DNA of 64,000 bases from Anaerolineae bacterium (GTDB lineage Bacteria; Chloroflexota; Anaerolineae; Promineifilales; Promineifilaceae). The notes under the pieces are model-generated. The model was not told the origin of the DNA and did not search any database. It worked only from the letters and a program-made list of their open reading frames with translations. Positions 16,835-56,425 of the stretch are shown in pieces; positions within the stretch are counted from its first letter, which is position 1; each line of letters starts with the position of its first letter. Position numbers and translations under genes: made by a program. The stretch spans positions 2,120 to 66,119 of the forward strand of contig SLGK01000001.1 of assembly GCA_007123775.1 (NCBI GenBank), in the 5' to 3' direction.

Positions 16835-16842
16835 ACAGGCTA

Positions 16843-18483: not shown

Positions 18484-18490
18484 ACGAGTT

Positions 18491-18554
18491 AGTGCGTAGT
18501 GCGTAATGCGTAATGATAAAGGTCTACGCACTACGTACCACGCACTACGTTACG
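18491..18554. repeat. Inverted pair of heptamer arrays (GTGCGTA/GTGCGTA/ATGCGTA versus CTACGCA/CTACGTA)
   Basis: Left arm 18491-18515 and right arm 18524-18554, between the cytochrome stop and the rhodanese start. The ORF-track start at 18513 reads through it. Confidence 0.85.
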
Positions 18555-18563
18555 GAGGACAAG

Positions 18564-38158: not shown

Positions 38159-39812
38159 CCTTTATCCTTATGAACGGCGCAAGCTGCTGTAGGGCCTCGT
38201 CCCGCCAGGCATCGCTATCATCCCCTTCTTCCAGGGCAAACAGCCGCTCGCGACAAAGAATTTGTAGCAGCACAGGCCAGCCGTCGCTCTGCGCCAAAAT
38301 CCAGGCCACGTCATCGGCGGCAAAGGGTATCGGGGAGCTGCCGATCAGGGCCACCGCCTCCTCCTCGCTAAACGGGCCTAGCGTGGCCATATAGCCGAAT
38401 ATATTAAAGAAGGGAGAACCGTAACCACTGTGCTGAGCCAGTTGGTCGGGTGGTTGGGGACCAGCCATAATAAAACCCAGGTTGCCGCTGACCTGATTGG
38501 TGGCTAACGAGCGCAGGCTTTCCCAGAAGGCATCGTCAAGGTCAGGATAGCGTTGTAAAGCCACGCCGATTTCATCAAGCAAAATAACGGTAGGCTGGCG
38601 CAGATGATCACTGACGGCATCCAGGAAATCTTCCACATAACAAGGATCAGGGACGGGTATCTCCATCTGATTCAGCAAGTAACGCATCAATGGTTCTCTG
38701 CCACCTAAGCGTGGGTCCTGAAAATCGACAAAGATCCAGCGCTGCTGTCCGGGCTGGGGCAGCCAGTCGGCCTTTTGGTCGGGCCGACGCTGAGCGGCCG
38801 ATACCTGGCTGATTGTGTGCAGAAAGCGCAGCAAAGAGGTTTTACCGCTGCGTCGCGGCCCAATAATGGCACCGTTCTGTAAAGGTGGACGCCTGACTAA
38901 ATGGCAGAGCCGCTTCAGCTCTCGCTGCCGGCCGAAGAATTGGGCGGGATGGGTGATAGGCGGACCGGCAATAAAGGGTTGAGAAGGTTGAAAACTGAAA
39001 GTTGTGGGCTGATCTATTACCCCTGGACGTGGTGACGGAGCGTGTCTGGGGTTTTCGTAATTCGTAATGCGTAATTCGTAATTTTCCAATTCGCCGCTGC
39101 GAATTTGCTCACGGAGTTCGCTGGTAGCGGCGGCCGGCTCAACGCCCAGTTCGTCCATCATAATCTGGCGGCAGGTTTCGTAATGTGAGAGCGCCGCCCC
39201 GCGCTGACCGTTGAGCGCCAGAGCCGTCATCAAGTAGCGATGGGCTTCTTCGCGCACGGGGTCCAGGCGGATCATCTGGCGGGCGTAGGTAACGGCCGTT
39301 TCATAAGCAGCCCTGGCCGTCGCGTCAACCACCAGCCGCTGGCAGACAGACAACAGTTCATCTTGCAGAGACAACCGCTGCTGCGCCAACCATTCCTCAA
39401 AAACGGGGGCATCACGCACATAGAACTCTTCCAGAAACTCGCCACGGTAGAGGGCCACCGCCGCCACCAGGTCGTCGGCGGTAGGCTGGGGTGAATCTAC
39501 CAGTTGGCGAAATTGGGTCACGTCTAGCCAATGGTCCGCTTCGCGCTTAAAGCGGAGGCTGTGGCTAGAAATATCCAGGTAAGGGGCCACAAACTGGCGC
39601 AGCTTGAGCAAGTCGCCGCGCAGATTGCGCCGGGCATCACTGTCTGGCAGATCACTCCACAGCAGGTGGGCTAGATATTGACGGGTGTGAGAACGGCCGT
39701 CTACCGCCAGAAAACATAGCAGCGCCTGCGCCTTCACCGAGGCCAGGTCAGACAGCGGCCGATCGGCCAAACTCAGCTTCAATTGTCCCATTAAGGCCAG
39801 CTTTAGTACCAT
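38148..39812 (-). CDS. SARP-type (OmpR-like wHTH plus BTAD) regulator fused to a P-loop ATPase (subfamily A)
   Basis: The N-terminus LMGQLKLSL...KAQALLCFLAV...LWSDLPDSDARRNLRGDLLKLRQ and YRGEFLEE...AHRYLMTALALNGQRGAALSHYETCRQIMMDELGVEP form a SARP/BTAD pattern. Then Walker A IIGPRRSGKTSLL, Walker B VILLDEIG, and SPFFNIF. Confidence 0.8.
   Translation of the reverse strand: MVLKLALMGQLKLSLADRPLSDLASVKAQALLCFLAVDGRSHTRQYLAHLLWSDLPDSDARRNLRGDLLKLRQFVAPYLDISSHSLRFKREADHWLDVTQFRQLVDSPQPTADDLVAAVALYRGEFLEEFYVRDAPVFEEWLAQQRLSLQDELLSVCQRLVVDATARAAYETAVTYARQMIRLDPVREEAHRYLMTALALNGQRGAALSHYETCRQIMMDELGVEPAAATSELREQIRSGELENYELRITNYENPRHAPSPRPGVIDQPTTFSFQPSQPFIAGPPITHPAQFFGRQRELKRLCHLVRRPPLQNGAIIGPRRSGKTSLLRFLHTISQVSAAQRRPDQKADWLPQPGQQRWIFVDFQDPRLGGREPLMRYLLNQMEIPVPDPCYVEDFLDAVSDHLRQPTVILLDEIGVALQRYPDLDDAFWESLRSLATNQVSGNLGFIMAGPQPPDQLAQHSGYGSPFFNIFGYMATLGPFSEEEAVALIGSSPIPFAADDVAWILAQSDGWPVLLQILCRERLFALEEGDDSDAWRDEALQQLAPFIRIKDEA
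39054..39081. repeat. Heptamer array (TTCGTAA x2, TGCGTAA, TTCGTAA) embedded in the SARP-ATPase coding sequence
   Basis: Read on the minus strand it encodes ENYELRITNYE in the linker between the BTAD and ATPase domains. Confidence 0.85.
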
Positions 39813-39833
39813 TTTCTTACGCTCAATTCTGAA

Positions 39834-39888
39834 ATCAACGCCAGATCAACGCTACAGCAACTTTCAATTGGCAAAGGTGTGGTATCAT
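39834..39888 (+). promoter_or_regulatory. 11-bp-phased direct repeats (ATCAACGC x2 plus degenerate copies) with a -10-like TATCAT: candidate SARP-dependent promoter of the Tad-like operon
   Basis: ATCAACGC at 39834 and 39845, AGCAACTT at 39856, ATTGGCAA at 39867 (period 11), then 8 nt, then TATCAT at 39883-39888. Lies in the divergent region between the SARP-ATPase gene and the 40035 operon. Confidence 0.35.
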
Positions 39889-40034
39889 GTAGTCACAGTT
39901 ATCGTTACTCGGTGTTTGGTAACTGGTATCGGAAAACCGATCAAAGCTAACGAACAACATACAACCGGTATCAGTAACAGATAGTAAAGCGTGAGCAATA
40001 AATCGTCAATTATAACCTATAAGCGGATAGTCCT

Positions 40035-42125
40035 ATGATGAACAACAAGCCAAAGGCAACAAATGGTCAGGCCCTGGTTGAATTCGCCCTCATGATTACG
40101 GTCGTGCTAATGCTGATATTTCTAATCATCGAAGCCAGCCGCATTTTGTGGGCCTGGACGACGGTGCAGAATGCCGCCCGTGAAGGGGCACGCTATGCCA
40201 TTACCGGCCAATTCATGGGGCCAGAGTGCGCCGTGCAAGACCTGCCCAAGTTCCAACATATTTGCCAGGACGTCAATCAGACCAAACTGCGGACGGCGGG
40301 CATCATCAGCGTCACCCACCGCGGCCTGTCGGGGCTGCCGCTGGATGAAACCTCAGGCATTATGGAAGATGACAACTACTACATCATTCAAGTATGGGGC
40401 GGCATGGTGACTGCTGATGGTTTGCAGCTCGTGAGTGATTATGGCGGACTGCCGGGCCATCCGGTCGTCGTGCGGGCCATGTATCGGGTGCCCATTATCA
40501 CGCCGTTTTTTAACACCATTGTCCCTTCGGTGCCGGTGGTGGGGCAGGTAACGGAGTACAACGAAAATTTTGGCCAGTTGGGCAACCCTAGCGGTACCGG
40601 TCTTCCGCCTAGTGTGCCACCCGTGCCTACGGCCGGACCTTCACCCACGCCAACCGACACGCCGCCGCCTGACGCCGATCCCACCGAGACACCTACAGCC
40701 ACACCGACGAATACGTGGACTCCCTCTCCCACGCCCGTGATTTGTGGTACGCGCTTTATGCAAAGTCCCCTACAAAACCAGGCTTTTGTGTTGATCACGG
40801 GCGAAGTGGATGAAGAGGTAACGCTTTATAATCTTTCAGATGGCATGGCCGTTTTGGGAACAGCTACTCTGACCAACCCCGGTCCTAATCCAGTACGCGC
40901 CTGTGAAGGCTACACCAACTTTGACAACAGTCTGGCACCGCTGGTAGCGGGCAACATCCTGCTGATTGAAAGCGCAAACGGAACAACCGACCTCAGAATG
41001 GTGCTGGCGGCCGAACCCACGCCGACGCAAACTCACACCCCAACCGTAACGCCGACCTCAACGCCAACGGTTGAGCCGACGGAAACGATGACGCCAACGC
41101 CATCTAACCCCTTCATCAGCGTACGACCCAATTGTGGTCCCGGCCCTAACGTGCAGTTTAATGTTTCCGGCGCCAACTGGCCGCCGAATTCAGACATTGC
41201 CCTCTACTGGAATGTCAGCACGCTGCTCTTAACAATTCCGGCCAGTGAACACAGCGGCTCTTTCTCGCGCTCAATCGTCCGCAATAATGTGGGGCCGGGC
41301 ACCTATACGTTGATGGCCGCGGCCATTGGCGCCGGTCAGGCGACGGATCTTTTTACGGTGCCCTGCTCCGACACGACGCCCGTGCCCACGACGACGGCCA
41401 CGCCGACCAGTACGCCCAATCCGGCTGACCTGATCGTCGTTGGTCCGCCGGAGTTAATCAGCACGCCGCCAATTGTCGCTTACCAACCGGTGCAATATCG
41501 CGTTGTGATTAGCAATACGGGCGATATTGACGTCAACCAGCAGTTTTTTGTTGACCTGTACCTGAATCCGGCCGAGATTTTTCCCATTTACATTCCAGTT
41601 GAGCATAGTTCCGGCTATCGGGCCGTGGGCGGTTTGCCCGGCGGGGCCAGTCGGGTCATCAGCATTACGGCACCGTTTGGCTTCCAAAACGAGCCAACTG
41701 AAAACTGGATTTATGCCATGGTCGACTCGTTAGAGCAGGTGCCTGAGCTGATTGAGGACAACAACATTTCTACACCGGCGTTTTACGACCAGGTGACACC
41801 GGCAGCGACTCCTACGCCGACGTTTACGCCCAGTCCGGGCGGCAACTTCATCAGTGGTGTGGTGCGCCTGGCGGAAACGGGCACACGTCAGAACCGGGCA
41901 CAAATGGCGCTGGCCGATGCGGGCGGCATCATTATCCGGACCACTGAGTCTGACGCCAACGGCTTCTATACGTTTGCCGATGTGCCGGATGGTGTTTATA
42001 CGGTGTACGGTTGTATTCCGCTCGACGGAGGCAGCGCCGGTGGTTCACGAGCCGGCATTTCCGTGCCGCCTTCCAATGAGTTTGCCACCGTTTACTTGAG
42101 CCTGGAGCTACCTTGTTTGCCATGA
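40035..42125 (+). CDS. TadE-like pseudopilin N-terminus fused to a ~620-aa multidomain extension (PT linkers, CARDB-like, CarboxypepD_reg-like)
   Basis: NGQALVEFALMITVVLMLIFLIIEASRILWAWTTVQNAAREGARYA is a TadE-type N-terminus. Pro/Thr linkers. ADLIVVGPP...VVISNTGDIDVNQQFFVDLYLNP is CARDB-like. The C-terminal ESDANGFYTFADVPDGVYTVYG is a CarboxypepD_reg pattern. Confidence 0.72.
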   Translation: MMNNKPKATNGQALVEFALMITVVLMLIFLIIEASRILWAWTTVQNAAREGARYAITGQFMGPECAVQDLPKFQHICQDVNQTKLRTAGIISVTHRGLSGLPLDETSGIMEDDNYYIIQVWGGMVTADGLQLVSDYGGLPGHPVVVRAMYRVPIITPFFNTIVPSVPVVGQVTEYNENFGQLGNPSGTGLPPSVPPVPTAGPSPTPTDTPPPDADPTETPTATPTNTWTPSPTPVICGTRFMQSPLQNQAFVLITGEVDEEVTLYNLSDGMAVLGTATLTNPGPNPVRACEGYTNFDNSLAPLVAGNILLIESANGTTDLRMVLAAEPTPTQTHTPTVTPTSTPTVEPTETMTPTPSNPFISVRPNCGPGPNVQFNVSGANWPPNSDIALYWNVSTLLLTIPASEHSGSFSRSIVRNNVGPGTYTLMAAAIGAGQATDLFTVPCSDTTPVPTTTATPTSTPNPADLIVVGPPELISTPPIVAYQPVQYRVVISNTGDIDVNQQFFVDLYLNPAEIFPIYIPVEHSSGYRAVGGLPGGASRVISITAPFGFQNEPTENWIYAMVDSLEQVPELIEDNNISTPAFYDQVTPAATPTPTFTPSPGGNFISGVVRLAETGTRQNRAQMALADAGGIIIRTTESDANGFYTFADVPDGVYTVYGCIPLDGGSAGGSRAGISVPPSNEFATVYLSLELPCLP

Positions 42126-43435
42126 GATACTTCACTGCGTTGACGCTGCTTGTCTTTCTAGGTTTGTGGTGGCTGTCGCCCGATACGGCAACAACGGCCG
42201 TAACAACCGGCAGTAACGTCCATCCCACCTGGTCAGAAGCGGCCATACTCTCTGACGCGCCTCAGGGCGCCGAGCGGCCCTACATTGCCGCCGGCGCGGG
42301 CGAACGTCTGCTGCTGGTGTACACCCAGATAGACGGTGGCGCAGCCGCGTATCCCACGTACCGCCTGTCTAACAATTTCGGTACGACGTGGACAGCACCG
42401 GCACCCATCTATAACGCCAGTGGCGACTCAAGACAGGTTCACGCCGTTTTGGACCAGAACAACAACGGTCATGCCGTGTGGCGCGAGGGACCATTTGAAA
42501 TCCGCTATGCCGCTCAGTCTGATTGGGGCGGTGCGGTGTCTACGCTGCTCTTTAGCTCAGACGTTGGCGTTCCCAGTTTCCCCAAGCTTGTGGCCAGCGG
42601 TTCCGGCCAACTGGACGCGGTGTGGGCTGGTTTGCGCCTCCCGGAAGATAACAACAGCAACATCTTTCACACTTTTTCGACCAACAATGGGGCCACCTGG
42701 CAGACGGCTTCAGTTGTGGCCAGCACATTACCATCTTCCTTGTTTCCCTCTTTGGCGGTTGGCCCCGACGGTACACGGCACGTTGTCTGGGCCGAAGAAA
42801 CCGCTCTAGGCAATGAAAGAATCATGTATGCGCAGGGCACGGTAGCCGGCTCAACCATCACCTGGAGTGAGGCCATCATCGTCTCTAACCCCAATTTGCC
42901 GTATACCACCAGCCCCACGGTTGTTATGCACAACAACGCCGTACAGGTTTTCTATACCTGGCGCGATGATCAGGGCAACAACGAGGTCTACCAATATATC
43001 TATCTGGCTATTTGCGCCACGAACTGCGCCAACCCGGACAACTGGGTCAGCGCCAGCGGCAACCCGGTATCGGGCACGCTGGTTGGGGCCAACACCAATG
43101 ACCCGTTTTACGTGGAGTCAACGGCCGTTGTCAATCAGGGCTGTCTATACAGTTATTTCCACGGCACCAACCCCACCGACCCCAACGTTAACCAGAACAG
43201 TGAGATCGTGTGGGGCATCAACAGTTGTGGCCTGGGCTGGGACGATGGGCGGGACCAGACGACTGAGTATAACAGCCGTTCACTCTACCCGGCACTGGCG
43301 ACACACGACGACTGGTTGTTTCTGGTCTACGAGTCCGCACCACTGGGCGCGGGCTATCGTCAGGTCCATTTTCGGCGGGCGCAGGTAGACATTGTGCCCC
43401 TTAGCAGGCTGTATTTGCCAATTATCAGGCGGTAG
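42122..43435 (+). CDS. BNR/Asp-box repeat (sialidase-like beta-propeller) protein with N-terminal anchor
   Basis: ATGA overlap with the preceding stop. Hydrophobic N-terminus. Asp-box-like SNNFGTTWT and STNNGATWQ. Confidence 0.7.
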   Translation: MRYFTALTLLVFLGLWWLSPDTATTAVTTGSNVHPTWSEAAILSDAPQGAERPYIAAGAGERLLLVYTQIDGGAAAYPTYRLSNNFGTTWTAPAPIYNASGDSRQVHAVLDQNNNGHAVWREGPFEIRYAAQSDWGGAVSTLLFSSDVGVPSFPKLVASGSGQLDAVWAGLRLPEDNNSNIFHTFSTNNGATWQTASVVASTLPSSLFPSLAVGPDGTRHVVWAEETALGNERIMYAQGTVAGSTITWSEAIIVSNPNLPYTTSPTVVMHNNAVQVFYTWRDDQGNNEVYQYIYLAICATNCANPDNWVSASGNPVSGTLVGANTNDPFYVESTAVVNQGCLYSYFHGTNPTDPNVNQNSEIVWGINSCGLGWDDGRDQTTEYNSRSLYPALATHDDWLFLVYESAPLGAGYRQVHFRRAQVDIVPLSRLYLPIIRR

Positions 43436-43443
43436 GCATTCTT

Positions 43444-44100
43444 ATGAATCGACTTGAGTGGGTTTTAGGCATTTTCTTAGTTGTGCTGCTGCTGGTTATG
43501 GTGGGCCTGGGCATTATGCTCTGGACACAGCCCACCAGCCCCGACGACCTGGCCGCAAGCGGGCTATCAGACAGAGCCGCCCTGGTTGCCCCTACGCCGG
43601 TTTTTCAGGGCGACACGGCCAGGACAGCCTACGCCCGGGCCGAGGCGCAGATTCAAAGCTGGCAGGCTGATGCCATCTTGTTTAGTGCAACAGCCACCTG
43701 GCCCCAGGGTGCTACCATTCAGGAACTAATTGACGGTGCTTCAACCTGGTCCTTGACGTTTTACTCGCCCGCAAACCAGACAGCACGCCCGGCGGCCGTG
43801 GTTGAAGAGCAAGTCACTTTGATGGCCGAAAGCCGCTTTACGGCCGTTCCGGATCTAACTTCTGTGACCGCTTGGGAGATTGACAGCGACCGGGCCGTGC
43901 AAATTTTTCTGGCAGAAGGTGGCCAGGAGTTCATGCGCCAGCATCCGGTCACCACCTTACATATGACGTTGGGGATTGATGCGGAAGACGGCCGTTACGT
44001 CTGGTCGATCTCCTTGCTGGCTGAACTAACTGAAGAAATGTTCAAGATGAAAATCGACGCAGCGAATGGTGAAGTGAGAGCAATTGACTACATCCAATAA
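43444..44100 (+). CDS. Membrane-anchored hypothetical protein (PepSY-like C-terminus)
   Basis: N-terminal TM helix. The C-terminal MKIDAANGEVRAIDY resembles PepSY endings. Confidence 0.55.
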   Translation: MNRLEWVLGIFLVVLLLVMVGLGIMLWTQPTSPDDLAASGLSDRAALVAPTPVFQGDTARTAYARAEAQIQSWQADAILFSATATWPQGATIQELIDGASTWSLTFYSPANQTARPAAVVEEQVTLMAESRFTAVPDLTSVTAWEIDSDRAVQIFLAEGGQEFMRQHPVTTLHMTLGIDAEDGRYVWSISLLAELTEEMFKMKIDAANGEVRAIDYIQ

Positions 44101-44219
44101 ATTGTAACATCGCGCACTCTAATTCGTTAAACCTTTTTAGAGTCAATCTACTTATTTCACTTTTTGTACTATAAATGGTTTTTACACGATTTATAGTACC
44201 ACATCGGAGGCAAAATACG

Positions 44220-45473
44220 ATGAACCAACAACACGAGTACCTTGTTCCCGAACAGAAACAGCGCGGCCAGAGCCTGGTCGAGGTTGCTCTGTTCCTCCCG
44301 ATTCTTATCATCATTATTGCTGGCGTCGTGGAAGTCAGCCAGCTCCTGGTTACCCAGAATCGAGTGACGACCGCTTCGCGGGCAGCGGCTCGTTTTGGGG
44401 CCAATGGCGGTGAGAATGAAGGGATACGCCGCGTCATCATGAACAACGTAACCCAGACGCTAGACCTCAACGAAGCATTGTGGGACATCTGGATCTTACG
44501 GGGGCAGATCAATGAAGCTGGCGACGACATTCTGAACTGGGAGTTTGACCATATTTATGGCATCTCCAATACCGTTCGCTTTGGCGCCGTTGATGAGGCG
44601 ACGCTGCACCAGCGGGTCATTGATGAGCTTAGCGTAGACGGCCGTTCGCCAGCCGACCTGCGTTTTGTGGGCACTTTTGTCCAGCATGACGTGGATACCA
44701 TTCTGGGCCTGAGCGCCCTGCCCGGCCTGGACGGCTTCAACTCTGTGTCGAGCCTCAACGTGATGCGGATTGTCGGCGAAGTGTTAGAAGCGACCCGCGG
44801 CTGTGACGCCTTCCCCATCGCCGTAAAGAGTGACAACCGCTCTATCAGTGGCCCTCCGGGTAGCCAAGGTGGCAACCCTTACCCCAACAGCAACGAATTT
44901 TGGAACCCAAACCCACCCACCTACGATAGCTTTACCCTTCATCGTGACAACGTTGAGTTAGCTAACGCCCGCACAGGCGATCTCTTCCGTATCTGGGATG
45001 GTGGTGGCCCCGGCAACTTCGGCTGGCTGCGCTGGAATCGCGGCATCAACACCGGCTCAGGTGGTAGCAGCGGTACACTCGTAAACAGTCTGAGCTGGCC
45101 CGGCAACAGCAAAGATTACCACAACCATGGTGATGGCGGGCAAGCCGTTGCCGCCGGTATACCCCACGTCGTGCGCGGCTTTGTCGATTACCACGACAAC
45201 ACTGACCTGTCGCTCAACATCGGCAACTGGGTAGCAGCCGGTCCTGGCGTGGTGAATTCTAACGCTGTACGTAATACACTCGCGGACCACGTTGCCAGAG
45301 AACGGCAACTGCGCGTCATTGTTTTCGACAATAAAGAAGGAACAGGTTCCAACGTACGCTATCAGGTTGAACGCTTCGCCGTGTTCCAGCTACATGGTTT
45401 TGATTTACCCGGCAACAACGGCTGGATTCTGGCTGAGTTTATCCGCTGGGATGATTCCTGCGGCCAACAGTAG
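44220..45473 (+). CDS. TadE-like pseudopilin N-terminus fused to a ~350-aa C-terminal domain
   Basis: The ATG at 44220 follows GGAGG. RGQSLVEVALFLPILIIIIAGVVEVSQLLVTQNRVTTASRAAARFGA is a TadE-type N-terminus. Confidence 0.72.
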   Translation: MNQQHEYLVPEQKQRGQSLVEVALFLPILIIIIAGVVEVSQLLVTQNRVTTASRAAARFGANGGENEGIRRVIMNNVTQTLDLNEALWDIWILRGQINEAGDDILNWEFDHIYGISNTVRFGAVDEATLHQRVIDELSVDGRSPADLRFVGTFVQHDVDTILGLSALPGLDGFNSVSSLNVMRIVGEVLEATRGCDAFPIAVKSDNRSISGPPGSQGGNPYPNSNEFWNPNPPTYDSFTLHRDNVELANARTGDLFRIWDGGGPGNFGWLRWNRGINTGSGGSSGTLVNSLSWPGNSKDYHNHGDGGQAVAAGIPHVVRGFVDYHDNTDLSLNIGNWVAAGPGVVNSNAVRNTLADHVARERQLRVIVFDNKEGTGSNVRYQVERFAVFQLHGFDLPGNNGWILAEFIRWDDSCGQQ

Positions 45474-45502
45474 ATTTAACCTCACAAAGTGATTGCAGAC
45501 CG

Positions 45503-45529
45503 GGCAGCCCGCGCCGTACGCGGGCTGCC
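45503..45529 (+). promoter_or_regulatory. Intra-operon GC-rich hairpin
   Basis: GGCAGCCCGCG-ccgta-CGCGGGCTGCC, a perfect 11-bp stem between the 44220 and 45559 genes. The following T tract is weak (TTCGG). Confidence 0.4.
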
Positions 45530-45558
45530 TTCGGCCATTCCCGGCAAGGATTATTGCT

Positions 45559-47535
45559 ATGATTAAGAAGTGGTTTTTACATCAAAACAAGCAGCAGGCA
45601 AACGCAGAAAGAGAGGAAGAAGGGCAAAGCATTGTCATTCTGGCTTTTGTCTTCATCGGGCTGTTGGCCTTCGTGGGTATAGCGGTTGACGTTGGCCTTG
45701 TGTTTGCCCGTGCCACCCAGTTGCAGTCGGGTATTGATGCGGCTGCCCTGGCCGGTGTAACCGAGCTAGCCGATGGCGACCTGAACGATGCCGACAACCG
45801 GGCGGCCCAATTTTTGCGGGCCAACGGCATTCCTATCAGCGTCACCCAAACAATCGTCAGTGACCGGGACGTAAACTCCTTAGACGGTGTCGAGTATTCA
45901 GTGACGGGTACCTGGCCTGTCGAACTCTTCTTCCTGCGTCTGATTGGGCTGGAGGAAGTGAACGTAACCCGCTCGGCCACGGCCGCCTATTTCCCCCTGG
46001 CCGACATTTTTACCGGCCGGCGCAGCGAGTATGGCTTTATCGAAACGGCCAATCAGAGTGTTTTTGGGCCGAATATCTGTACCAGCTATGGCGACTCGTT
46101 CTCACCGCTTAACAGCGTTTGGGCGCCCGGAGAATACACCTGGAAGTATCGCATTTACATACCGCCTGACTACAACCATGATATCGTTCGCGTCGAGCTG
46201 TTTGACCCGGATTCGATCAACACGGCTGAAAACAGCCACACCGTCTTCTTCAGCGCGACCGCTATTCAATATTCGCTTGATAACGATCCGCCCGACAATC
46301 GGCGCTTTCCGGCCGAGGGCAAGGTCTTGAATTGTCAAGAGCACTCGGTTGGCGGTAATCCCCACCAGCGCTGGCAGCCCTGCGTTCTCAGAACTGGCGA
46401 GCTAGACATCCTCGAGGAAGATGATTCCATCAGTTTAGACCAGATCAACCCTTACTGGTTTGTCCGCATTGACGAAAATCGGGGAGCGGGCGCTGGTCAT
46501 GGCAACGGCACATGTGGCACGCCAAGCGTCTACACACCTCGTTACAACACACAGACCGTGTTTGAGCTGTTCTACTATCGCCAGGAGTCAGACGGTACCA
46601 TTACACGCATACCGCTGGCCAGTTACACGGGCCAGGTGGATGACGGCATTCGCGGCGGCGGCGACCATATGACAGATATGCGCTGGGTTAGCCCTCGTCC
46701 CGGTCCTCAGCCATATGATGACTACGTTGATGAAAACGGCAATCCAATTGTGGTGCCGGCTGATTTCGGCTCGTTTGACATTAGCCTCAGCAGCATTCCT
46801 GATATTTTGGAAGATCCGGCCACAGGCGCCAGATATATCTACCTGGACATCACCTCCCTCAGCGGCGCTTCCGAAAATGGGTACAGCATCTGGGCCGGCC
46901 CACCCAACGACAATCGGGCATCTGACGTCAATACACGCAACCTTAACCTGGTTGAAAGTCCGGCGGCGGCCAGCGCCCATTTTTCGCAAGGTGTTACCGT
47001 GTTCGCCATGGGCAACCTGCCCATGAACTCGATTTATAGCCAGCCGGTCGATATTCCGCTGGTATACATCGGGCCGGAGATGGCCGGGCAGCGGGTGTTT
47101 GTCAGCCTGTTTGACCCCGACGCCGGCACCCAGCCACCTATCGCTTTTTTCTTTGACTCCATTGCCTTCCAGCCGACGACAGGAAACACCGTTGGCGTCA
47201 ACTGGAACCAAACGGATTGGGGCTTTTTGTACGGAGACGCCACAGATCCGAATCCGGACGGCCGTTGCTTCCACGTCAGTGTATCGGGCAACAATCGCTG
47301 CACCAACCAATGGATCGATCCGTCCTACGGACTGACCATTCCGGGTGATGTTAGCCGTTGTGACTATGGGCATCTGGCCACGCTAACACCAGGCACGGCC
47401 GAGTATCGCCAATATTTGATGGACAACTGCACCCCTTTCTACGGCGGCCGCCTCCATGCCCGCTATGCCAGCAACTTTGCTGATACGTACGGTTGGGAAA
47501 TCCGCCTGGAGGGTATACCTTATCTCGTCCGTTAA
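45559..47535 (+). CDS. TadG-like (Tad_N / putative Flp pilus-assembly) N-terminus fused to a ~590-aa extension
   Basis: EEGQSIVILAFVFIGLLAFVGIAVDVGLVFARATQLQSGIDAAALAG matches the TadG/Tad_N N-terminal pattern. The ATG at 45559 follows AAGGA. Confidence 0.68.
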   Translation: MIKKWFLHQNKQQANAEREEEGQSIVILAFVFIGLLAFVGIAVDVGLVFARATQLQSGIDAAALAGVTELADGDLNDADNRAAQFLRANGIPISVTQTIVSDRDVNSLDGVEYSVTGTWPVELFFLRLIGLEEVNVTRSATAAYFPLADIFTGRRSEYGFIETANQSVFGPNICTSYGDSFSPLNSVWAPGEYTWKYRIYIPPDYNHDIVRVELFDPDSINTAENSHTVFFSATAIQYSLDNDPPDNRRFPAEGKVLNCQEHSVGGNPHQRWQPCVLRTGELDILEEDDSISLDQINPYWFVRIDENRGAGAGHGNGTCGTPSVYTPRYNTQTVFELFYYRQESDGTITRIPLASYTGQVDDGIRGGGDHMTDMRWVSPRPGPQPYDDYVDENGNPIVVPADFGSFDISLSSIPDILEDPATGARYIYLDITSLSGASENGYSIWAGPPNDNRASDVNTRNLNLVESPAAASAHFSQGVTVFAMGNLPMNSIYSQPVDIPLVYIGPEMAGQRVFVSLFDPDAGTQPPIAFFFDSIAFQPTTGNTVGVNWNQTDWGFLYGDATDPNPDGRCFHVSVSGNNRCTNQWIDPSYGLTIPGDVSRCDYGHLATLTPGTAEYRQYLMDNCTPFYGGRLHARYASNFADTYGWEIRLEGIPYLVR

Positions 47536-47566
47536 TGTAACTGTGTAAGCATTCAGCCTCTCCGCA

Positions 47567-47627
47567 GACCGGCGCGGTTGCCGCCCATCATTGGCAGTAA
47601 CCCGCTTTCGTCCCAACCGCGCCGGTC
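47567..47627 (+). promoter_or_regulatory. Perfect 14-bp inverted repeat in the leader of the giant Flp-like gene
   Basis: GACCGGCGCGGTTG (47567-47580) and CAACCGCGCCGGTC (47614-47627) separated by 33 nt, located 31 nt upstream of the ATG at 47659. Confidence 0.5.
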
Positions 47628-47658
47628 CCAACGGGGATGTAACCAAAAGGAAAATCTC

Positions 47659-50319
47659 ATGTCAAAACGGGGCCGACTTTTTCATTCATTGATCACCAAC
47701 AAAGCAGAAAGTGGCCAGGGAATTGTCGAATACCTGATTATTCTGGCTTTGGTAGCCATTATCCTGGTAGCTGTGGTAAACACGATGCGGCCGGCGATTG
47801 CCGATGTCTTCTCACGCTTTGTAGAGCGGGCGGCCGTAGCACCCCCTGCCTTGATGGAATACACCCCCCCGGCCCCACCCGCGCCGCCCGAACCACCGGA
47901 ACCGGTTTGTTACAGCCTTAACAGGACCGAAATAGGACAGGGAACCATTTACGTAACCGATCCACCCAACCCCAATTGTGATGATGAGAATGAACCAGAC
48001 AAATATAACACGGGTACTATTATCACCCTGGAAGCAGTGGCGCAGCCCGGTTTTCTCTTTGGCGGGTGGAGTCAGGCGCTCACCGGCACGATCAATCCGG
48101 CTCAGCTACTCATGGACGGCAATAAGGACGTCACGGCTACGTTTCTGGATGAAACGGATTGCTCAACCGTCACTTATTCGGTGACGCCAGAAGGGGCCGG
48201 TAGCGTTCAGCCAGATCAGCCATTTAACTGTGGTGAGAATCAATTTACCAATGGTCTGGGAGTCCACTTTACAGCCGTGCCCGAAAGCGGCTATATCTTT
48301 GAACAGTGGACCGGCGACTTTAGCGGCAGCAACAACCCGCACGCCAAGATCATTGACGGCGACCTGAACTTCACGGCCGTTTTTGTGGAGCATTGTTACC
48401 AGGTTAGCCTGAACGTCGTCGGCGATGGGTCTATTAATGAATCATATAACCCTAACGATCCCTGTCACGGTGGTGGCTACCCGGCCGGAACAATCGCTAC
48501 ATTTACGGCCGTTCCCGGTGACGAGTCGTACGTTTTTGGTGGCTGGAGTGGTTCGGCCACCGGCAACGACGAGACGATTGAAATCGTCTTGAATCAGAAC
48601 GTGGACCTGACGGCGACCTTTAACCAATGCCATACGCTGACCAGAACGGCTATAGGTAACGGCAACATCACACCCGCAACTGACTATAATTGCAGCGGCG
48701 AACGGTTCCAAACAGGAACACCGGTACAACTGGCCGCCACGTCTGCCCCTGGTCACGGCTTTGTCAGTTGGGGTGGTGCCGCCTCGGGCAATGATCCCAT
48801 CACCACCATCATTATCAATCAAGATGAAACGGTGACGGCTAACTTTACCCAATGCTTTGCCCTGACGACCAACGTTTCGCCAGCCAACATGGGTGAGGTA
48901 AACCGGCTGACGGGCTACTCCACGAACTGTAATGGCGACTACTACCTGCCGGGCACGGAAGTGGGCCTTCGGGCCGACCCTGATCCCAACAATGGCTACC
49001 AGTTTGGTTCGTGGAGCGGCGACATCAGCGGCACGCAGAATCCCACCACCTTTGTCATCAACGACAACAGCAGCGTCACCGCCAACTTTATCTGCGAGCT
49101 GTATGCTCCCTGGCAAAACAGCAGTATTGGTAGCGGTGCCGGCGGCCAGGCTTGTGAATCACTGGGTACCTATGTCGTCACCGGCTCAGGCGGTGACATC
49201 TGGGGATCAGCGGACAGGTTCCATTACGCCTACCAGCAGCGAACGGGCGACTTTACCATTGTAGCCCGCGTCAACAGCCAGACCAACACGGCCGCCTGGG
49301 CCAAAGCGGGCGTCATGATCCGCGAAAACCTGAGTGCGGGGTCACGCTATGCCTTCGCCGCCGTGACGCCAGGCAACGGTACACGCTTCCAATACCGGGC
49401 AACCGCCAACAACAACTCTAACAGTTCCGGTGTGGGTGGCACAGCGCCGCGCTTTCTAAAGCTAGAGCGGCTGGGCAACACCTTTACCGCCTATTACTCC
49501 AGCAATGGTGTTACTTGGACGCAATATGAGTCGCAGGAAGTTGACATGGGCAGTACGGTCTATTATGGACTGGCGGTATCATCGCACAACAACAATGCGT
49601 CAACGGCCGTTTTCACCAACGTCTCTATTGAAGCCACACCAGCCTGTCATGCGGTCACAACGGCCGTTACGCCAGCGGGCAGCGGTTCCATAAATATGAC
49701 GCCACCGTTTAACTGTGACGGCGGCTATACCAGCGGCACATCAGTCACGCTTACCGCCCTCCCCAACGCTGGCTATCAGTTCGACGGTTGGGGTGGCGAC
49801 CTAAGTGGCACAAACAATCCTCGCAACCTAACCGTTGATAATCCTTTGAATATAACGGCCGCTTTTTCACCCTGCTCGCCCAGCAATATCATCTTAAACC
49901 CTGGCTTTGAGTCTGGTCTAACCCACTGGAATACGCAGGGCAACGTGAACACAACTACTGACGCCAGGAGCGGCAACCTGGCAGCCCAATTGTCGGGCAC
50001 AAACGCGGACCATACCATCTCCCAAGTGCATGCCGCCATTCCTGGCTATACGTATACAGCCAGTGTTTGGGCCAAAAGACGGCAGGCTGGTTGGGCTGGT
50101 ATCGGACTTACTTTCTTTGATAGCAACTGGAATGAACTGGCGGTAAGCAGTAGCAACTTGATAGTTGACCAAAATAATTACCGCTTCAACAGCCACACGG
50201 CAACAGCGCCTGCCAATACGGCGCATGTCGTCCTCTGGATAGGTGCCAACAATTTCCAGAATAATAATTCTTTCGTAAGATTGGATGATGTGCAAATGAT
50301 GGCCCCCGTATGTAACTAG
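47659..50319 (+). CDS. Flp-type prepilin N-terminus fused to ~850 aa of adhesin/lectin modules (six InlB-B-repeat-like units, a ConA/LamG-like domain, a CBM4_9-like domain)
   Basis: MSKRGRLFHSLITNKAESG-QGIVEYLIILALVAIILVAV fits the Flp G/xxxxEY processing motif. Six repeats end in (F/Y).F..W(S/G/T)G..(S/T)G. The DIWG..DRFHYAYQ...WAKAGVMIRE domain is lectin-like. C-terminal NPGFESGLTHWN is CBM4_9-like. Confidence 0.7.
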   Translation: MSKRGRLFHSLITNKAESGQGIVEYLIILALVAIILVAVVNTMRPAIADVFSRFVERAAVAPPALMEYTPPAPPAPPEPPEPVCYSLNRTEIGQGTIYVTDPPNPNCDDENEPDKYNTGTIITLEAVAQPGFLFGGWSQALTGTINPAQLLMDGNKDVTATFLDETDCSTVTYSVTPEGAGSVQPDQPFNCGENQFTNGLGVHFTAVPESGYIFEQWTGDFSGSNNPHAKIIDGDLNFTAVFVEHCYQVSLNVVGDGSINESYNPNDPCHGGGYPAGTIATFTAVPGDESYVFGGWSGSATGNDETIEIVLNQNVDLTATFNQCHTLTRTAIGNGNITPATDYNCSGERFQTGTPVQLAATSAPGHGFVSWGGAASGNDPITTIIINQDETVTANFTQCFALTTNVSPANMGEVNRLTGYSTNCNGDYYLPGTEVGLRADPDPNNGYQFGSWSGDISGTQNPTTFVINDNSSVTANFICELYAPWQNSSIGSGAGGQACESLGTYVVTGSGGDIWGSADRFHYAYQQRTGDFTIVARVNSQTNTAAWAKAGVMIRENLSAGSRYAFAAVTPGNGTRFQYRATANNNSNSSGVGGTAPRFLKLERLGNTFTAYYSSNGVTWTQYESQEVDMGSTVYYGLAVSSHNNNASTAVFTNVSIEATPACHAVTTAVTPAGSGSINMTPPFNCDGGYTSGTSVTLTALPNAGYQFDGWGGDLSGTNNPRNLTVDNPLNITAAFSPCSPSNIILNPGFESGLTHWNTQGNVNTTTDARSGNLAAQLSGTNADHTISQVHAAIPGYTYTASVWAKRRQAGWAGIGLTFFDSNWNELAVSSSNLIVDQNNYRFNSHTATAPANTAHVVLWIGANNFQNNNSFVRLDDVQMMAPVCN

Positions 50320-50390: not shown

Positions 50391-50425
50391 TAGATTGGAC
50401 CAATCTGGCAGATTGGTCCAATCTA
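50391..50425. repeat. Two tandem copies of the palindrome AGATTGG-N-CCAATCT
   Basis: tAGATTGGaCCAATCTggcAGATTGGtCCAATCTa. The two copies can also pair with each other as a 16-bp hairpin. Overlaps the stop of the 50423 gene. Confidence 0.8.
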
Positions 50426-52069
50426 CGCCCGCCGTCGCCAGATAAACAACAAGCCTGAACCCAACAACAACCCGACCAGCAGCACATACAATCCTGTCAG
50501 CGGCCCAGGCCACGTATCTACGGCCGTATCTACGAACGTATCTACGTCCATCTCCTCGGCCACCACCGGCCAGGGTGTGGCGGATGGCAGGGGCGAAGCA
50601 ACGGCCGTAGCCATCATAGTCGGTTCGGGTGAGGCCGCTATACCGGGGGCTGGGGTAACAGTTGCCGTGGTAGAGGGAACGGCCGTGGCCGTGGGCGGCG
50701 GTGCGGATGAAATCTCAGGCTCCACCACAAAAACGGGCGGGCCACCCATATAGCACTCCCCATAACAGCGCGCCCCGGCCAGCTCCAGACGATACACCCC
50801 CTCCTCGGCCAGGATCGTCTGCACTTCACCGAGCGCTGACACCAATGAGGCGGAGGCGGCCGTGGCTGGCAGCGTCACAGAAACCGGGGCCTGACCCCGT
50901 GCCCACAACACCCGCGTCAGACCCTGCGGCCGTTCAAACGTCACCAGTTGGTACAGGTCGCCCTGCTGCTGCCGTACCGGGGGTATAAAACCGGCCGTTT
51001 GCCGGATGAGCGTGTGGTAGGCGTAATAAGCCGGCCGCTTGCTGAAATCATGCGGCCGTATCAGCCCCCACGACTCTCCGCCCGGCGGCAAATTGACGTC
51101 CACCAGCTTATAGACCGAAATCCGCTCCGCCCCCGCCGCAAAACCCAGCGAGAATGCCTGAATGATGTACCACGCCTGCTGATCCAGGTCAATCTGGAAC
51201 AGCTCTACCTCCACCGGCCATTCCGGGTCCATACTGGGCCGGGCGTTGGTCTCATTGATCCAGACCGGTTTGGCGGGCGAAATGCCGGCCGCCTCTTGGG
51301 CAGTAAAGGCGCTCTCTAAAATCAGCGGCACCGTTTCCGGCCGGAAATAAATGTGCAGCGAAATGACGTCAAAATAATAATCGTGGTCCGGCGCGGTGGG
51401 ATCGGCCGCCACCATGGCCAGGTAACGGTCCAAAAAGGTGGGGTCATGCCAGTAGGTTATGCCGCCCAGGTGGACCACGCCCTGCGGATCATGCGCTTTG
51501 ATGACGCGGTAGGCCACCTTTTTCAACTGGTAATAATCTGCCATCGTGCCGCTAAACTCGTGACCATACACGCCGGGGGCAATTTCCGGCTCGTTCCAGA
51601 TAATCCAGTTGTGGACGCCCAGCGGCGCGTAATATTCGACAACCCGGCGCACGTAGTTGGCCCACAAATTGTCGGGATCATCGTCGGGCAGGTAGAGGCC
51701 ATAGGGCACGCCGGAAGCATAGGGGGAATCGGTGGCCCACGAGGGCGTGTTTTTCAGCACCCCCAGGACGGTCCTGTTGTGGGCGTTAGCCTCGTGCAGC
51801 CACTCTTCCATGACGTGCAGCGTGTTCCAGGAATCGGGGCCAAAGGGCTGAATCTCGTTCCAGTAGAAGAGAATGCGCTCCCAGCCAACGCCCAGATCGG
51901 CCGCTTCCTCGGCGGCCCAAAAGGATTCCACCGCGCCAAAACGATGGTCCAGCATTTGGGGTGCGGGGGTGGGTGTGGCCGTCTGCGCCCCGGCCGGCCG
52001 CCCGGCGAGGAATGGGCTCATAAAAATCAATATGGTGATGAGAGGAACTGTTCGTTTTAACCAGATCAT
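50423..52069 (-). CDS. Clan GH-A-like (beta/alpha)8 glycoside hydrolase, secreted, with PT-rich linker and C-terminal TM anchor
   Basis: Signal peptide. NWIIWNEPE (acid/base Glu context) and VWINETN (nucleophile Glu context). C-terminal PPPTATAVPSTTATVTPAP linker and the helix LYVLLVGLLLGSGLLFIW. Confidence 0.65.
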   Translation of the reverse strand: MIWLKRTVPLITILIFMSPFLAGRPAGAQTATPTPAPQMLDHRFGAVESFWAAEEAADLGVGWERILFYWNEIQPFGPDSWNTLHVMEEWLHEANAHNRTVLGVLKNTPSWATDSPYASGVPYGLYLPDDDPDNLWANYVRRVVEYYAPLGVHNWIIWNEPEIAPGVYGHEFSGTMADYYQLKKVAYRVIKAHDPQGVVHLGGITYWHDPTFLDRYLAMVAADPTAPDHDYYFDVISLHIYFRPETVPLILESAFTAQEAAGISPAKPVWINETNARPSMDPEWPVEVELFQIDLDQQAWYIIQAFSLGFAAGAERISVYKLVDVNLPPGGESWGLIRPHDFSKRPAYYAYHTLIRQTAGFIPPVRQQQGDLYQLVTFERPQGLTRVLWARGQAPVSVTLPATAASASLVSALGEVQTILAEEGVYRLELAGARCYGECYMGGPPVFVVEPEISSAPPPTATAVPSTTATVTPAPGIAASPEPTMMATAVASPLPSATPWPVVAEEMDVDTFVDTAVDTWPGPLTGLYVLLVGLLLGSGLLFIWRRRA

Positions 52070-54744: not shown

Positions 54745-55107
54745 ATGAAGACAAAAATCAATTTGCTAGATGTCGTAGCCCTTACTGTCGATTTGCCAGA
54801 GTATAATCTGTGGCGAGGACAGGTAGGTACTGTTGTGGAAATTCTGGCCGACGGCAAAGCTTTTGAAGTGGAGTTTAGTGACCGCAACGGCCGTACCTAT
54901 GAGTCTATTGGCTTGCGTCCTGACCAGATAATGGCCCTGCATTTTGAACCGGTTGGCAGCTACTTAGGTTCACTGCCTAAAATCGGCATGTTTCAAATAA
55001 CCATTAACGCAGCCCTGACTATGTATGGGAAAAGTGATCGAGAATCTATTCCAGCACACATTTTGAAAAAGATTGCGGAGGAGATACGCAATGTCAGACT
55101 ACAATAA
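54745..55107 (+). CDS. DUF4926-like small protein with a C-terminal extension
   Basis: MKTKINLLDVVALTVDLPEYNLWRGQVGTVVEILADGKAFEVEFSDRNGRTYESIGL matches my recollection of DUF4926. The stop overlaps the next gene. Confidence 0.55.
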   Translation: MKTKINLLDVVALTVDLPEYNLWRGQVGTVVEILADGKAFEVEFSDRNGRTYESIGLRPDQIMALHFEPVGSYLGSLPKIGMFQITINAALTMYGKSDRESIPAHILKKIAEEIRNVRLQ

Positions 55108-56425
55108 AGCCATGAGCATCCACAATCCTTTCTACCATCGGGGCGCGATCCGGCAGGCGGACGACTTTTACGGCCGTTCCGCCGAAATCAATCAGATACT
55201 GGGCCTGCTGCAAAACGGGCAGAGCGTATCCCTGATCGGACCACGCCGCATCGGCAAGAGTTCGCTGCTGCTGCACCTGTGCCGGCCCGAAGTACGCGCC
55301 AACCTCAACCTGGCCCCGCCGCAGGCCCTCTTTGTCCTGCTCGACTGCCAGGAACTGGGCGGTTCACCCCCCGAAGAGGTGTACGAGGTATTGCTCGACA
55401 ACCTGCTCGACGCGGCCCAGGCAGCCAACATTGCCGTCAGGGGTGACTCGCAGCAGGCCACCTACCGCGCTCTGGACCGCGTGTTGCAACAGATTACCGA
55501 CCGTGGCACGACCGTTGTCGTTCTCCTCGACGAATTTGAGCTACTGGCCGCCAACAGCCATTTAACCCCCTACTTTTTTGCCCGGCTGCGCGGCCTGACC
55601 ACCAAATATGGCTTAGCGTATCTGACGGCGACGCAACGGCCGTTATTCGCCGTCACCGCTGAAGAAGAAATCCTCAGCTCCCCTTTCTTCAACATTTTCG
55701 TCACTCTGCCTTTGGGACTGTTCACCGCCACCGAAGCACGCGGCCTGGTAAACCAGCGACTACACGAAACATCGGTGCAGTTCAGTGAAGCACTTATTGA
55801 TCATCTCCTCCACCTGGCTGGCAGCCACCCCTTCTTTCTCCATGTAGCTGGCTACCACGCCTATCAAGCCCTGCTGCAAGAGCAACCATCGTTGGCCAAC
55901 GGCCAGTTCGCCTGGCTCGATGATCCCATCGAAATGGAAGCCGCCTCTCACTTGAGCTATCTGTGGCAAAACCTGAGCGCGGAAGAACAATACGCGCTGA
56001 CCATTGGCACCGGCCCCATTGACTGCCTGCGGCTGCTGGAACAACAATGCCTGCTGGAAAACGATAACGGTAGCTACCACTACACCAGCGACATTTTGCG
56101 CCGCTTTGTGCGTCGGCAGAAGGTAGAGGGCGTCATTCAGTTTGGCCCCTTCGTCATCGACCAGCAACGTCACCAGGTATGGGGTGATGGCCAGGAATTA
56201 AGCCTGACTACTTCGCAATTCAGCCTTTTTGTACGGCTGGCTGAGCAAGCGCAGCAAGTGGTGCATGGAGCTGATTTGGAAACGGCCGTTTGGGGGGATG
56301 TGCTGGTGGATGATCCCGACCGACTCAAAACCTTGATCAAGCGGTTGCGCCGCTCTCTTGACCCCTTCGGCCACTGGATTGTCAGCGAACGGGGGGTAGG
56401 CTATGCGTTACGAACACCCGACTGA
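55091..56425 (+). CDS. P-loop ATPase (subfamily A) fused to a C-terminal OmpR/PhoB-type winged-helix DNA-binding domain
   Basis: The ATG at 55091 follows GGAGGAG. Walker A LIGPRRIGKSSLL, Walker B VVVLLDEFE, SPFFNIF. C-terminal FGPFVIDQQRHQVWGDGQELSLTTSQFSLFVRL...RLKTLIKRLRRSL...GVGYAL is a Trans_reg_C pattern. Confidence 0.8.
   Translation: MSDYNKAMSIHNPFYHRGAIRQADDFYGRSAEINQILGLLQNGQSVSLIGPRRIGKSSLLLHLCRPEVRANLNLAPPQALFVLLDCQELGGSPPEEVYEVLLDNLLDAAQAANIAVRGDSQQATYRALDRVLQQITDRGTTVVVLLDEFELLAANSHLTPYFFARLRGLTTKYGLAYLTATQRPLFAVTAEEEILSSPFFNIFVTLPLGLFTATEARGLVNQRLHETSVQFSEALIDHLLHLAGSHPFFLHVAGYHAYQALLQEQPSLANGQFAWLDDPIEMEAASHLSYLWQNLSAEEQYALTIGTGPIDCLRLLEQQCLLENDNGSYHYTSDILRRFVRRQKVEGVIQFGPFVIDQQRHQVWGDGQELSLTTSQFSLFVRLAEQAQQVVHGADLETAVWGDVLVDDPDRLKTLIKRLRRSLDPFGHWIVSERGVGYALRTPD

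Follow-up and report, generated by a model that had tools for sequence, protein, structure and literature searches.

The window analysed here, a 64-kb stretch of Anaerolineae (Promineifilaceae) DNA, carries at positions 40035-50319 six plus-strand genes, G1 to G6, whose junctions are short or overlapping. Four of the encoded proteins (G1, G4, G5 and G6) start with N-termini of the Tad pilin class, and the six genes are probably a separate operon for the minor pilins (the 'tip') of a Tad (type IVc) pilus whose motor would be encoded elsewhere. This reading is based on the gene set, since TadE-, TadF-, TadG- and Flp-like proteins encoded away from the machinery correspond to the Tip layout known from the Kil system of Myxococcus xanthus. 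Judged by its sequence, G6 contains a whole Flp prepilin, which is continued by a large cargo that differs between species. The gene calls from three further assemblies of the same organism concur with the coordinates of G1 to G6, in agreement with the original prediction of six co-oriented genes. As an operon this unit of six was retained, but it forms part of a conserved module of eight genes that also includes two regulators.

Tad-class N-termini and the modular pilin G6

Profile scans bore out the Tad-class character that had been assigned to the N-termini, as opposed to generic signals. G1 (40035-42125, 696 aa), a putative modular TadE-type minor pilin, and G4 (44220-45473, 417 aa), a putative TadE/TadF-type minor pilin, match TadE (PF07811) with 56.3 and 41.6 bits, respectively, and both exceed the Pfam gathering threshold of 22.9 bits. 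G5 (45559-47535, 658 aa), a putative TadG-type large minor pilin or anchor, matches Tad (PF13400) with 33.9 bits at a threshold of 22.3 bits. G6 (47659-50319, 886 aa) stays below the threshold of Flp_Fap (PF04964) and was assigned by the profile, HMMER and identity comparisons described below. In the Pfam and NCBIfam scans an N_methyl-type signal was found in none of the six proteins, the signals being of the Flp/TadE class; the NCBIfam scan of the operon proteins yielded sub-threshold matches only.

All six frames of the 64 kb were scanned for the motif G-x4-E-[YFVLIA] followed by 16 hydrophobic residues. Exactly three sites were returned, and these are the N-termini of G1, G4 and G6. Thus, the N-terminal motifs are not due to chance. 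The glutamate at position +5 is present in all 43 orthologues of G1 in which the site (G/QALVEF) was found (43 of 44 orthologues) and in 52 of 53 orthologues of G4 (G/QSLVEV), while the complete motif of G6 (G/QGxxEY, i.e. G-Q-G-x-x-E-Y) occurs in 40 of 43 orthologues. The site of G5 reads G22/QSIVIL; its orthologues have G/QSIV(L/I), and in none of them is a Glu found at +5.

The leader of G1 ends at G11 and is followed by QALVEF and a TadE module of about 185 aa. Behind this module PT-linked beta-sandwich domains were identified, including CARDB (28.2 bits, threshold 22.7) and CarboxypepD_reg (33.4 bits, threshold 32.3), both above the Pfam thresholds. This order of TadE module, PT linkers and CARDB plus CarboxypepD_reg domains is a modular-pilin layout. 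G1 orthologues are conserved from end to end (42-51% identity), the PT-linked domains included. In G4 the leader ends at G16, then QSLVEV follows, and a pilin-like module precedes a second domain of about 210 aa without known relatives. Both G1 and G4 exceed the 150-200 aa that are usual for TadE/F.

AlphaFold2 models of G4 and G5 were built from homologue alignments and compared to the PDB with Foldseek. The model of G4 (predicted local distance difference test score, pLDDT, 81) consists of a helix (residues 15-61), a four-stranded sheet and the second domain (residues 200-410). It gave no significant fold match in the PDB and matched no solved pilin (best E 0.1). For G5 (pLDDT 83, predicted template modelling score 0.78) the model has a helix (residues 21-70), two short helices, a small sheet and a large beta-rich domain, and no significant PDB match was obtained (best E 8e-3, a CBM22 tandem). 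According to these models, the distal domains of both proteins are without a match among solved structures. Searches retrieved 390 full-length homologues of G4, the organism-named ones all from Chloroflexota, and 393 of G5, the named ones again all from Chloroflexota and several of them from Ardenticatenaceae, Promineifilaceae or Candidatus (Ca.) Leptofilum. Both proteins are conserved over their full length, and the homologues are labelled 'TadG-related' or 'TadE/TadG family' at NCBI. A comparison of G5 with G4 by hhalign revealed a match of 29 columns and no meaningful relationship beyond it.

The C-terminal domain of G5 (about 510 aa) is Cys-rich and beta-rich with eight conserved Cys residues; a VWA domain was not detected in the protein. 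The domain (window 45990-47535, residues ~145-655) belongs to no Pfam family and is marked by the motifs FGPxICTxxGDPFSP, VELFDPDS, RIDENRG, SGASENG and FDxDSG. In the same genomes it recurs at other loci (L056-L085) at the N-terminus of paralogues of 600-1900 aa that carry Sec signal peptides; these paralogues often occur in tandem arrays. Since they serve the plain secretion of this domain, the Tad N-terminus of G5 probably has a specific role.

The prepilin module of G6 extends from 47659 to 47832 and comprises a leader of 19 aa (M1-G19, 47659-47715) and a mature helix of about 40 aa (Q20-~A58, 47716-47832). Cleavage at G/QGIVEY would place Glu at +5 and Tyr at +6, as in PilA and Flp of solved structure (8u1k, 8u2b, 8ucr) and in Anaerolineae Flp proteins of 47-84 aa, with which G6 also shares the leader-Gly and a hydrophobic helix followed by an amphipathic tail. 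A profile of the G6 N-terminus derived from 41 orthologues was searched against 177,635 PDB sequences. The two best matches were PilA (8u1k, E 0.003) and Flp (8u2b/8ucr, E 0.01), and the alignments with 8u1k and 8u2b are in register and begin at the Glu-Tyr pair.

Related proteins were also searched with HMMER, using the 75-aa N-terminus of G6 against 1.84 billion representative proteins (no word filter, E ≤ 1e-3). The 334 matches are headed by about 70 long proteins (300-1500 aa) with an N-terminal match, and the remaining ones are mostly proteins of 51-99 aa, for which Flp_Fap was the best Pfam family in all nine that were tested. With one of these short proteins (P0323) as bait 6,656 proteins were retrieved; the 120 matches listed all carry PF04964 and have a length of 47-84 aa, and the named ones are from Anaerolineae or Chloroflexi. 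An ungapped alignment pairs residues 15-56 of G6 with residues 5-46 of a 48-aa Flp (43% identical, 74% similar) which is encoded inside a tad locus of another genome (L086). The profile matches to 8u1k and 8u2b, the links to short Flp_Fap proteins and the identity to this Flp together indicate that G6 carries a complete Flp prepilin. As judged from its sequence it is an atypical Flp, which has the motif and the homology of the family and lacks the size and the Pfam score. A 48-aa open reading frame (ORF) near position 5.5 kb of the window was also considered and is not an Flp.

While an ordinary Flp ends after the helix, G6 runs on into AAVAPPALMEYTPPAPP and about 810 further residues. The mature protein has 867 aa (orthologues 350-916 aa) as opposed to about 40-60 aa for Flp. 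Behind the Flp core a Pro-rich linker, six InlB-B-type repeats, a ConA-like domain and a C-terminal jelly-roll follow, which is the layout of a modular pilin, consisting of a pilin module, a linker and a domain not specific to pilus biology. The repeats match Flg_new_2 in six stretches (197.6 bits, above threshold). Together with CARDB and CarboxypepD_reg of G1 they are the cargo modules that stood up as predicted, whereas the ConA-like domain (DUF1349) scored 29.8 bits, just under its threshold of 32.4. A predicted CBM4_9-like module gave no match; the last 140 aa of G6 instead resemble NTTRR-F1 of NCBIfam with 47.8 bits, below the cut-off of that family.

The part common to the G6 orthologues is limited to the first 60-70 residues, with a mean column identity of 61% in the core compared to 15% overall. 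According to a Pfam census of 38 proteins, 20 carry CBM6/CBM35, seven Flg_new_2, five F5/8-type-C and two VWA domains, and P-domain, PKD, H-lectin, CBM11/30/96 and Golvesin_C were also found. For the most part this cargo is carbohydrate-binding. The cargo of G6 is swapped between species, while conservation extends over the full length of G1, G4 and G5. In the Tad pilus of Caulobacter the N-terminus of the pilin points toward the fibre axis and the C-terminus outward (PMC11067988), so that a fusion at the C-terminus is compatible with the fibre geometry.

Two observations concern the arrangement of Flp-like cores in related genomes. One locus (L039, positions 3643-8821) contains two tandem genes of the G6 type (723 and 866 aa) with differing leaders and cargo, from which it follows that a cargo-carrying Flp can duplicate. 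Moreover, two proteins among the matches, P0248 (418 aa) and P0254 (182 aa), consist of four and two tandem Flp-like cores, each with its own G/QGxxEY and separated by hydrophobic spacers. Either poly-Flp precursors or the merging of separate gene calls could account for them.

Conservation of the gene cluster and location of the Tad machinery

One genome per species was taken for a survey of related loci, which resulted in 80 loci; synteny was counted among the 54 with a G5 of the Tad-N type, and the denominators comprise only those loci with enough sequence on the respective side. The module of eight genes (G1-G6 and the two regulators) is syntenic in about 50 species-level genomes, with one cluster per genome, from Ardenticatenaceae, Promineifilaceae and Ca. 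Leptofilum/Leptovillus. G4 lies 5′ of G5 in 46 of 47 loci, G1-G3 are located upstream in 35 of 35, the divergent regulator pair is present upstream in 27 of 29, and a G6-type gene follows 3′ of G5 in 36-37 of 41 loci. In three loci (L033, L034 and L037) the dcw cluster lies directly after G5. The run of genes after G5 in L029-L037 (141, 309, 155, 573, 474, 333 and 453 aa) was considered as Tad machinery and proved to be this dcw cluster, from mraZ to murG. All but one of the 80 loci have record titles of Chloroflexota. The remaining one (L061, recorded as Candidatus Zixiibacteriota) contains homologues of G4-G5-G6 with about 40% identity and is explained either by a binning error or by horizontal transfer.

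The original prediction had noted that no CpaF/TadA ATPase, TadB/C platform or prepilin peptidase is encoded in the window. Indeed, no T2SSE, T2SSF or Peptidase_A24 domain was found in the scanned ORFs, which included all 36 of at least 200 aa and 10 of the 14 non-overlapping ones of 70-199 aa, four of 70-96 aa being left out. Beyond the edges of the window only housekeeping genes are present in the other, shorter assemblies. In none of the about 50 related loci does the cluster lie within 10 kb of Tad machinery; a Walker-A pattern search for T2SSE-type ATPases over these 10 kb matched one ABC ATPase and no T2SSE-type ATPase.

By way of the short Flp relatives, tad loci were found in three Anaerolineae (L086, L087 and L089), where flp (one or two copies) is followed by rcpC/cpaB, tadZ (REC and ParA-like), tadA (T2SSE), tadB and tadC. 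These loci cover positions 10001-16742 in L086, for which the gene identities were confirmed by Pfam, and 10001-16335 in L089. No tadE/F/G, A24 peptidase or secretin gene was detected within 10 kb of any of the three. According to this, their minor pilins, if any, are encoded elsewhere, and in the three Anaerolineae examined the Tad system is dispersed over several loci. A machinery that is not adjacent to its minor pilins may be usual in the class. A conserved gene of 172 aa located 5′ of flp was considered as prepilin peptidase and was rejected, its product being soluble, helical and of no known family. In a published set of Chloroflexota metagenome-assembled genomes (MAGs) from wastewater treatment plants, the majority is stated to encode type IV/Tad pilus assembly (Petriglieri et al., PMC10746286). 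Among the members of this set are Ca. Leptofilum gracile, L. proximum and Leptovillus affinis, corresponding to our loci L010, L069 and L047. Sets of CpaB/E/F and TadB/C were also described for Chloroflexi MAGs (PMC9942424), and work on Litorilinea and the studies cited therein found Tad as the sole pilus system in several filamentous Chloroflexota.

Two further genes of the operon encode proteins without a pilin-like N-terminus. G2 (42122-43435, 437 aa), the start of which overlaps the stop of G1 (ATGA), has an N-terminal signal or anchor and a predicted BNR/Asp-box propeller. The propeller matched BNR_2 below the Pfam threshold (E 3e-5), and only a profile of G2 orthologues, which found sialidases and BNR proteins in the PDB at E 3e-6, substantiated this part of the original prediction. 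G3 (43444-44100, 218 aa) is a single-pass membrane protein with a C-terminal PepSY-like domain; the predicted PepSY character is borderline (23.9 bits at a threshold of 24) and the PepSY match in the PDB is weak.

Divergently to G1 two regulator genes are located on the minus strand. The first (38148-39812, 554 aa) encodes an activator with a BTAD (SARP-type) domain of 91.5 bits fused to an AAA/STAND ATPase (AAA_16, AAA_22), and the second (35411-38158, 915 aa), which overlaps it by 11 bp, encodes a membrane STAND NTPase with a hydrophobic, probably multi-spanning N-terminal half followed by an nSTAND1/AAA domain (nSTAND1, AAA_22). The latter is probably a sensor or regulator. To judge by its position, the intergenic region of 222 bp (39813-40034) presumably contains the promoters of both the regulator pair and the pilin operon; a scan of the operon for promoters and terminators (sigma-70 consensus) was uninformative.

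Comparison with known pilus systems and alternative readings

In M. xanthus, trimers of KilL, KilM and KilN act as interchangeable 'Tips' which prime and cap the Kil fibre (Herrou et al. 2025, PMC12075869). Of the four Tip clusters, three lie apart from the machinery genes, and one cluster (tip3) encodes a 59-aa Flp minor pilin, KilO, which was proposed as an adapter from tip to fibre; the same role as for the Tips was proposed for TadEFG in other bacteria (PMC12075869). By its gene content the cluster described here appears comparable to a Kil-type Tip cluster. TadE-, TadF- and TadG-like minor pilins are co-encoded apart from the machinery, the large TadG-like member has conserved Cys residues and a C-terminal domain without PDB homologue, the cluster includes a gene for an Flp-type minor pilin, and the distal domains vary. 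The models of G4 and G5, with a long N-terminal helix, a beta-sheet head and extra domains, also resemble KilL/M/N as described. On the other hand, the Flp member here bears 300-1450 aa of swappable glycan-binding cargo instead of having about 59 aa, and the TadE-like member bears about 500 aa of Ig-like, CARDB and CarboxypepD_reg domains. Furthermore, genes for the BNR propeller and the PepSY protein and the divergent STAND/BTAD regulator pair are additional to the Kil gene set, one cluster is present per genome rather than four, and the host is a filamentous member of the Chloroflexota, a phylum increasingly seen as monoderm, rather than a predator, with no link to a type III secretion system. 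That the host is filamentous had been predicted and fits this lineage.

With the canonical TadE/F and TadG proteins of the tad/cpa loci of Aggregatibacter, Pseudomonas and Caulobacter the cluster shares the PF07811 and PF13400 N-termini, the G/xxxxE(Y/F) motif in the TadE/F types and a large TadG lacking this motif. Unlike them, the proteins described here are encoded outside a tad locus and are two- to fourfold larger, and no VWA domain was detected in the TadG-like protein. The grafting of an adhesive module onto a pilin module is known from Streptococcus sanguinis, in which PilB carries a VWA domain and PilC a ConA-like lectin domain (Raynaud et al. 2021, PMC8179133; PMC9934059) and the minor pilins form a tip-located complex that binds glycans or proteins (PMC8179133, PMC9934059). 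However, PilB and PilC are type IVa pilins, which have a globular head and the N-methylation signal IPR012902, whereas here the cargo is carried either by a TadE module or by an Flp pilin, which is no more than a helix of about 40 aa. The published census of modular pilins used the IPR012902 signature only and does not mention Flp/Tad (Raynaud et al. 2021, PMC8179133).

What is new here is the combination of a modular Flp with swappable cargo and a modular TadE protein in a conserved module of eight genes, Tad tips and modular pilins as such being already known. Minor-pilin operons of type IVa pili encode the beta-propeller adhesin PilY1/PilC, which is also discussed in PMC8179133. A propeller gene, G2, likewise lies in the middle of the operon described here. 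Unlike PilY1/PilC, its product has a BNR/sialidase fold and no PilY1 domain, and no sequence relationship was detected. An association of G2 with the tip by analogy to PilY1 is speculation.

From cleavage and complex formation to tip location, ligand, regulation and a machinery in the same genome, we infer the following course for the operon. A TadV-type prepilin peptidase, encoded at some other locus, would cleave G1, G4 and G6 behind the conserved Gly, and G1, G4 and G5 would form a priming complex which ends up at the pilus tip. G6 would join next, as an adapter or low-abundance subunit, and its C-terminus, a Pro/Thr linker with lineage-variable glycan-binding modules, would be displayed as cargo on the exterior of the fibre. 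The fibre itself would consist of ordinary Flp pilins of 48-60 aa and be built by a flp-rcpC-tadZABC machine at another locus. The G2 propeller and the G3 PepSY protein may be accessory or tip-associated factors, and the divergent BTAD-AAA and membrane STAND pair may control expression. The filaments would probably use such pili to attach themselves to polysaccharides, flocs or neighbouring cells.

Several findings weigh against a tip operon. The Flp_Fap score of G6 is 20.0 bits at a threshold of 32.2, with an E-value below 0.001 in just two of 38 orthologues, and four or five related loci lack G6. G5, having no Glu at +5, may stay in the membrane, and TadG is classed as a component of the membrane sub-complex in one review (PMC10191384). 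With 400-870 aa the mature proteins are large for a pilus that has to pass through a multilayered envelope, and G2 and G3 have no counterpart in the described Tip clusters. Regarding the machinery, no Tad ATPase, platform or peptidase was found for the cluster-bearing genomes within 10 kb of the cluster or by the Flp-bait search, where none of the 120 matches listed belongs to a contig on which the cluster is known to occur. The three tad loci L086, L087 and L089 are from other Anaerolineae, which may not be close to the cluster-bearing clade.

An alternative is a short pseudopilus, a stub in which the four pilin-like proteins hold adhesin and carbohydrate-binding modules at the surface or sheath for the capture of polysaccharides. 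Precedents are the bindosome of Sulfolobus, in which archaeal sugar-binding proteins carry class III signal peptides, and the pseudopili of type II secretion systems. Such a stub would use Tad or unknown machinery and might in addition bear the BNR propeller and a hydrolase. It would suit the large size of all four pilin-like proteins and their carbohydrate-binding cargo. Moreover, the operon includes the gene of a sialidase-fold protein, some genomes add one for a possible hydrolase, the cluster is unlinked to flp-tadZABC in all loci seen, and one G6 orthologue also matches Class_IIIsignal. Nevertheless, a stub seems rather unlikely to us: the gene set is that of a pilus-priming tip complex (PMC12075869), the core of G6 is closest to Flp pilins of the major type, and no dedicated ATPase or platform is co-encoded. 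The Tad-derived fibre displaying carbohydrate-binding modules that had been predicted comes close to the best explanation, but it does not look like a new kind of fibre, the gene set being that of a Tip cluster.

The Tad-type N-termini could also be mere membrane anchors or export signals of independent surface adhesins that do not polymerise and are either left uncleaved or cleaved and released. This would fit the lack of the Glu at +5 in G5, which pilins need for assembly, the view of some authors that TadG is a membrane component, and the occurrence of the C-terminal domain of G5 behind Sec signals in paralogues. For a plain anchor, however, the near-invariance of Gly at -1, Glu at +5 and Tyr/Phe (G1, G6) or Val (G4) at +6 in about 50 species would be unlikely. 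In addition a whole Flp pilin sequence is kept in G6, and the same genomes employ a Sec signal where the G5 domain is simply to be secreted, so that we regard mere anchoring as improbable. It is very improbable that G6 is itself the major polymerising subunit of a thick, Flp-cored fibre coated with lectin and carbohydrate-binding modules and primed by G1, G4 and G5, as the complete Flp core, the long flexible Pro/Thr linker, the outward C-terminus and the two tandem G6 paralogues of L039 might allow, since a cargo of 400-870 aa on every 40-aa helix of a narrow fibre would be sterically implausible, some genomes keep G1-G5 without G6, and an ordinary short flp adjoins the tad machinery in three Anaerolineae loci.

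Neighbouring genes and meaning for filamentous Anaerolineae

Convergent to G6 a gene for a membrane-anchored protein is located on the minus strand (50423-52069), for which a glycoside hydrolase had been predicted. The product showed no Pfam or NCBIfam match, and its best PDB match is a cellulase (4hty) at E 0.14, which does not bear out the assignment; NEP and ETN motifs would be compatible with a possible hydrolase of clan GH-A. A homologue of this gene follows G6 in 13 related loci (at least 500 aa in 12 of them) and not in the Leptofilum group, so that its membership in the cluster is uncertain.

A second STAND-type regulator with nSTAND2 and a winged-helix Trans_reg_C domain is encoded at 55073-56425. 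Its gene overlaps that of a 1677-aa protein (56403-61436) with FG-GAP/beta-propeller repeats and a C-terminal AAA domain. The window contains four STAND/AAA regulators in total, and a BTAD-like gene resembling the second STAND regulator lies 3′ of the pilin cluster in several related loci. Farther upstream (10344-20366) a redox neighbourhood comprises genes for an aldehyde:ferredoxin oxidoreductase, an NrfD-type membrane subunit, a 4Fe-4S protein with a twin-arginine translocation (TAT) signal, two multihaem cytochromes (MtrC/c7-like), a LysR regulator and a protein with four rhodanese domains. Three ORFs of 836, 426 and 557 aa (201-2711 and 2971-4251 on the minus strand, 6311-7984 on the plus strand) have no Pfam match at E ≤ 0.001 and are gene calls in other assemblies (L093).

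The literature search revealed no account of an Flp pilin with a fused carbohydrate-binding module, and a modular Flp pilin appears to be undescribed so far. The modular-pilin idea, known from type IVa pilins, would be extended by the cluster to the Flp class, and the Tad 'Tip' concept would be extended beyond predatory bacteria. The cluster also draws attention to two domains that are conserved but uncharacterised, which make up the C-terminal parts of G4 and of G5, and to two accessory proteins, G2 and G3. If the split between machinery and minor pilins holds throughout the class, the absence of tadEFG from a tad locus would be no sign that the locus is incomplete.

Activated sludge is rich in filamentous Anaerolineae, for example Ca. 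Promineofilum, Leptofilum and Leptovillus, which are discussed with regard to floc structure and bulking and whose mode of adhesion is described as unclear so far (PMC10746286). The clade with the cluster is thus far uncultured, though of environmental importance. The cluster provides a concrete molecular candidate for this adhesion, namely Tad pili with species-specific carbohydrate-binding tip or adapter subunits. A more far-reaching and tentative possibility is that in this clade the Flp pilin, the smallest pilin known, has been turned into a carrier of lineage-swappable glycan-binding modules, inherited together with a TadE/F/G tip set, a sialidase-fold propeller and STAND regulators of its own, which on Tad pili would amount to a programmable, polysaccharide-specific grappling or foraging device. 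If true, this would be the first modular type IVc pilin system, possibly with a fibre decorated along its length, and it could help to explain how abundant wastewater filaments bind to flocs.

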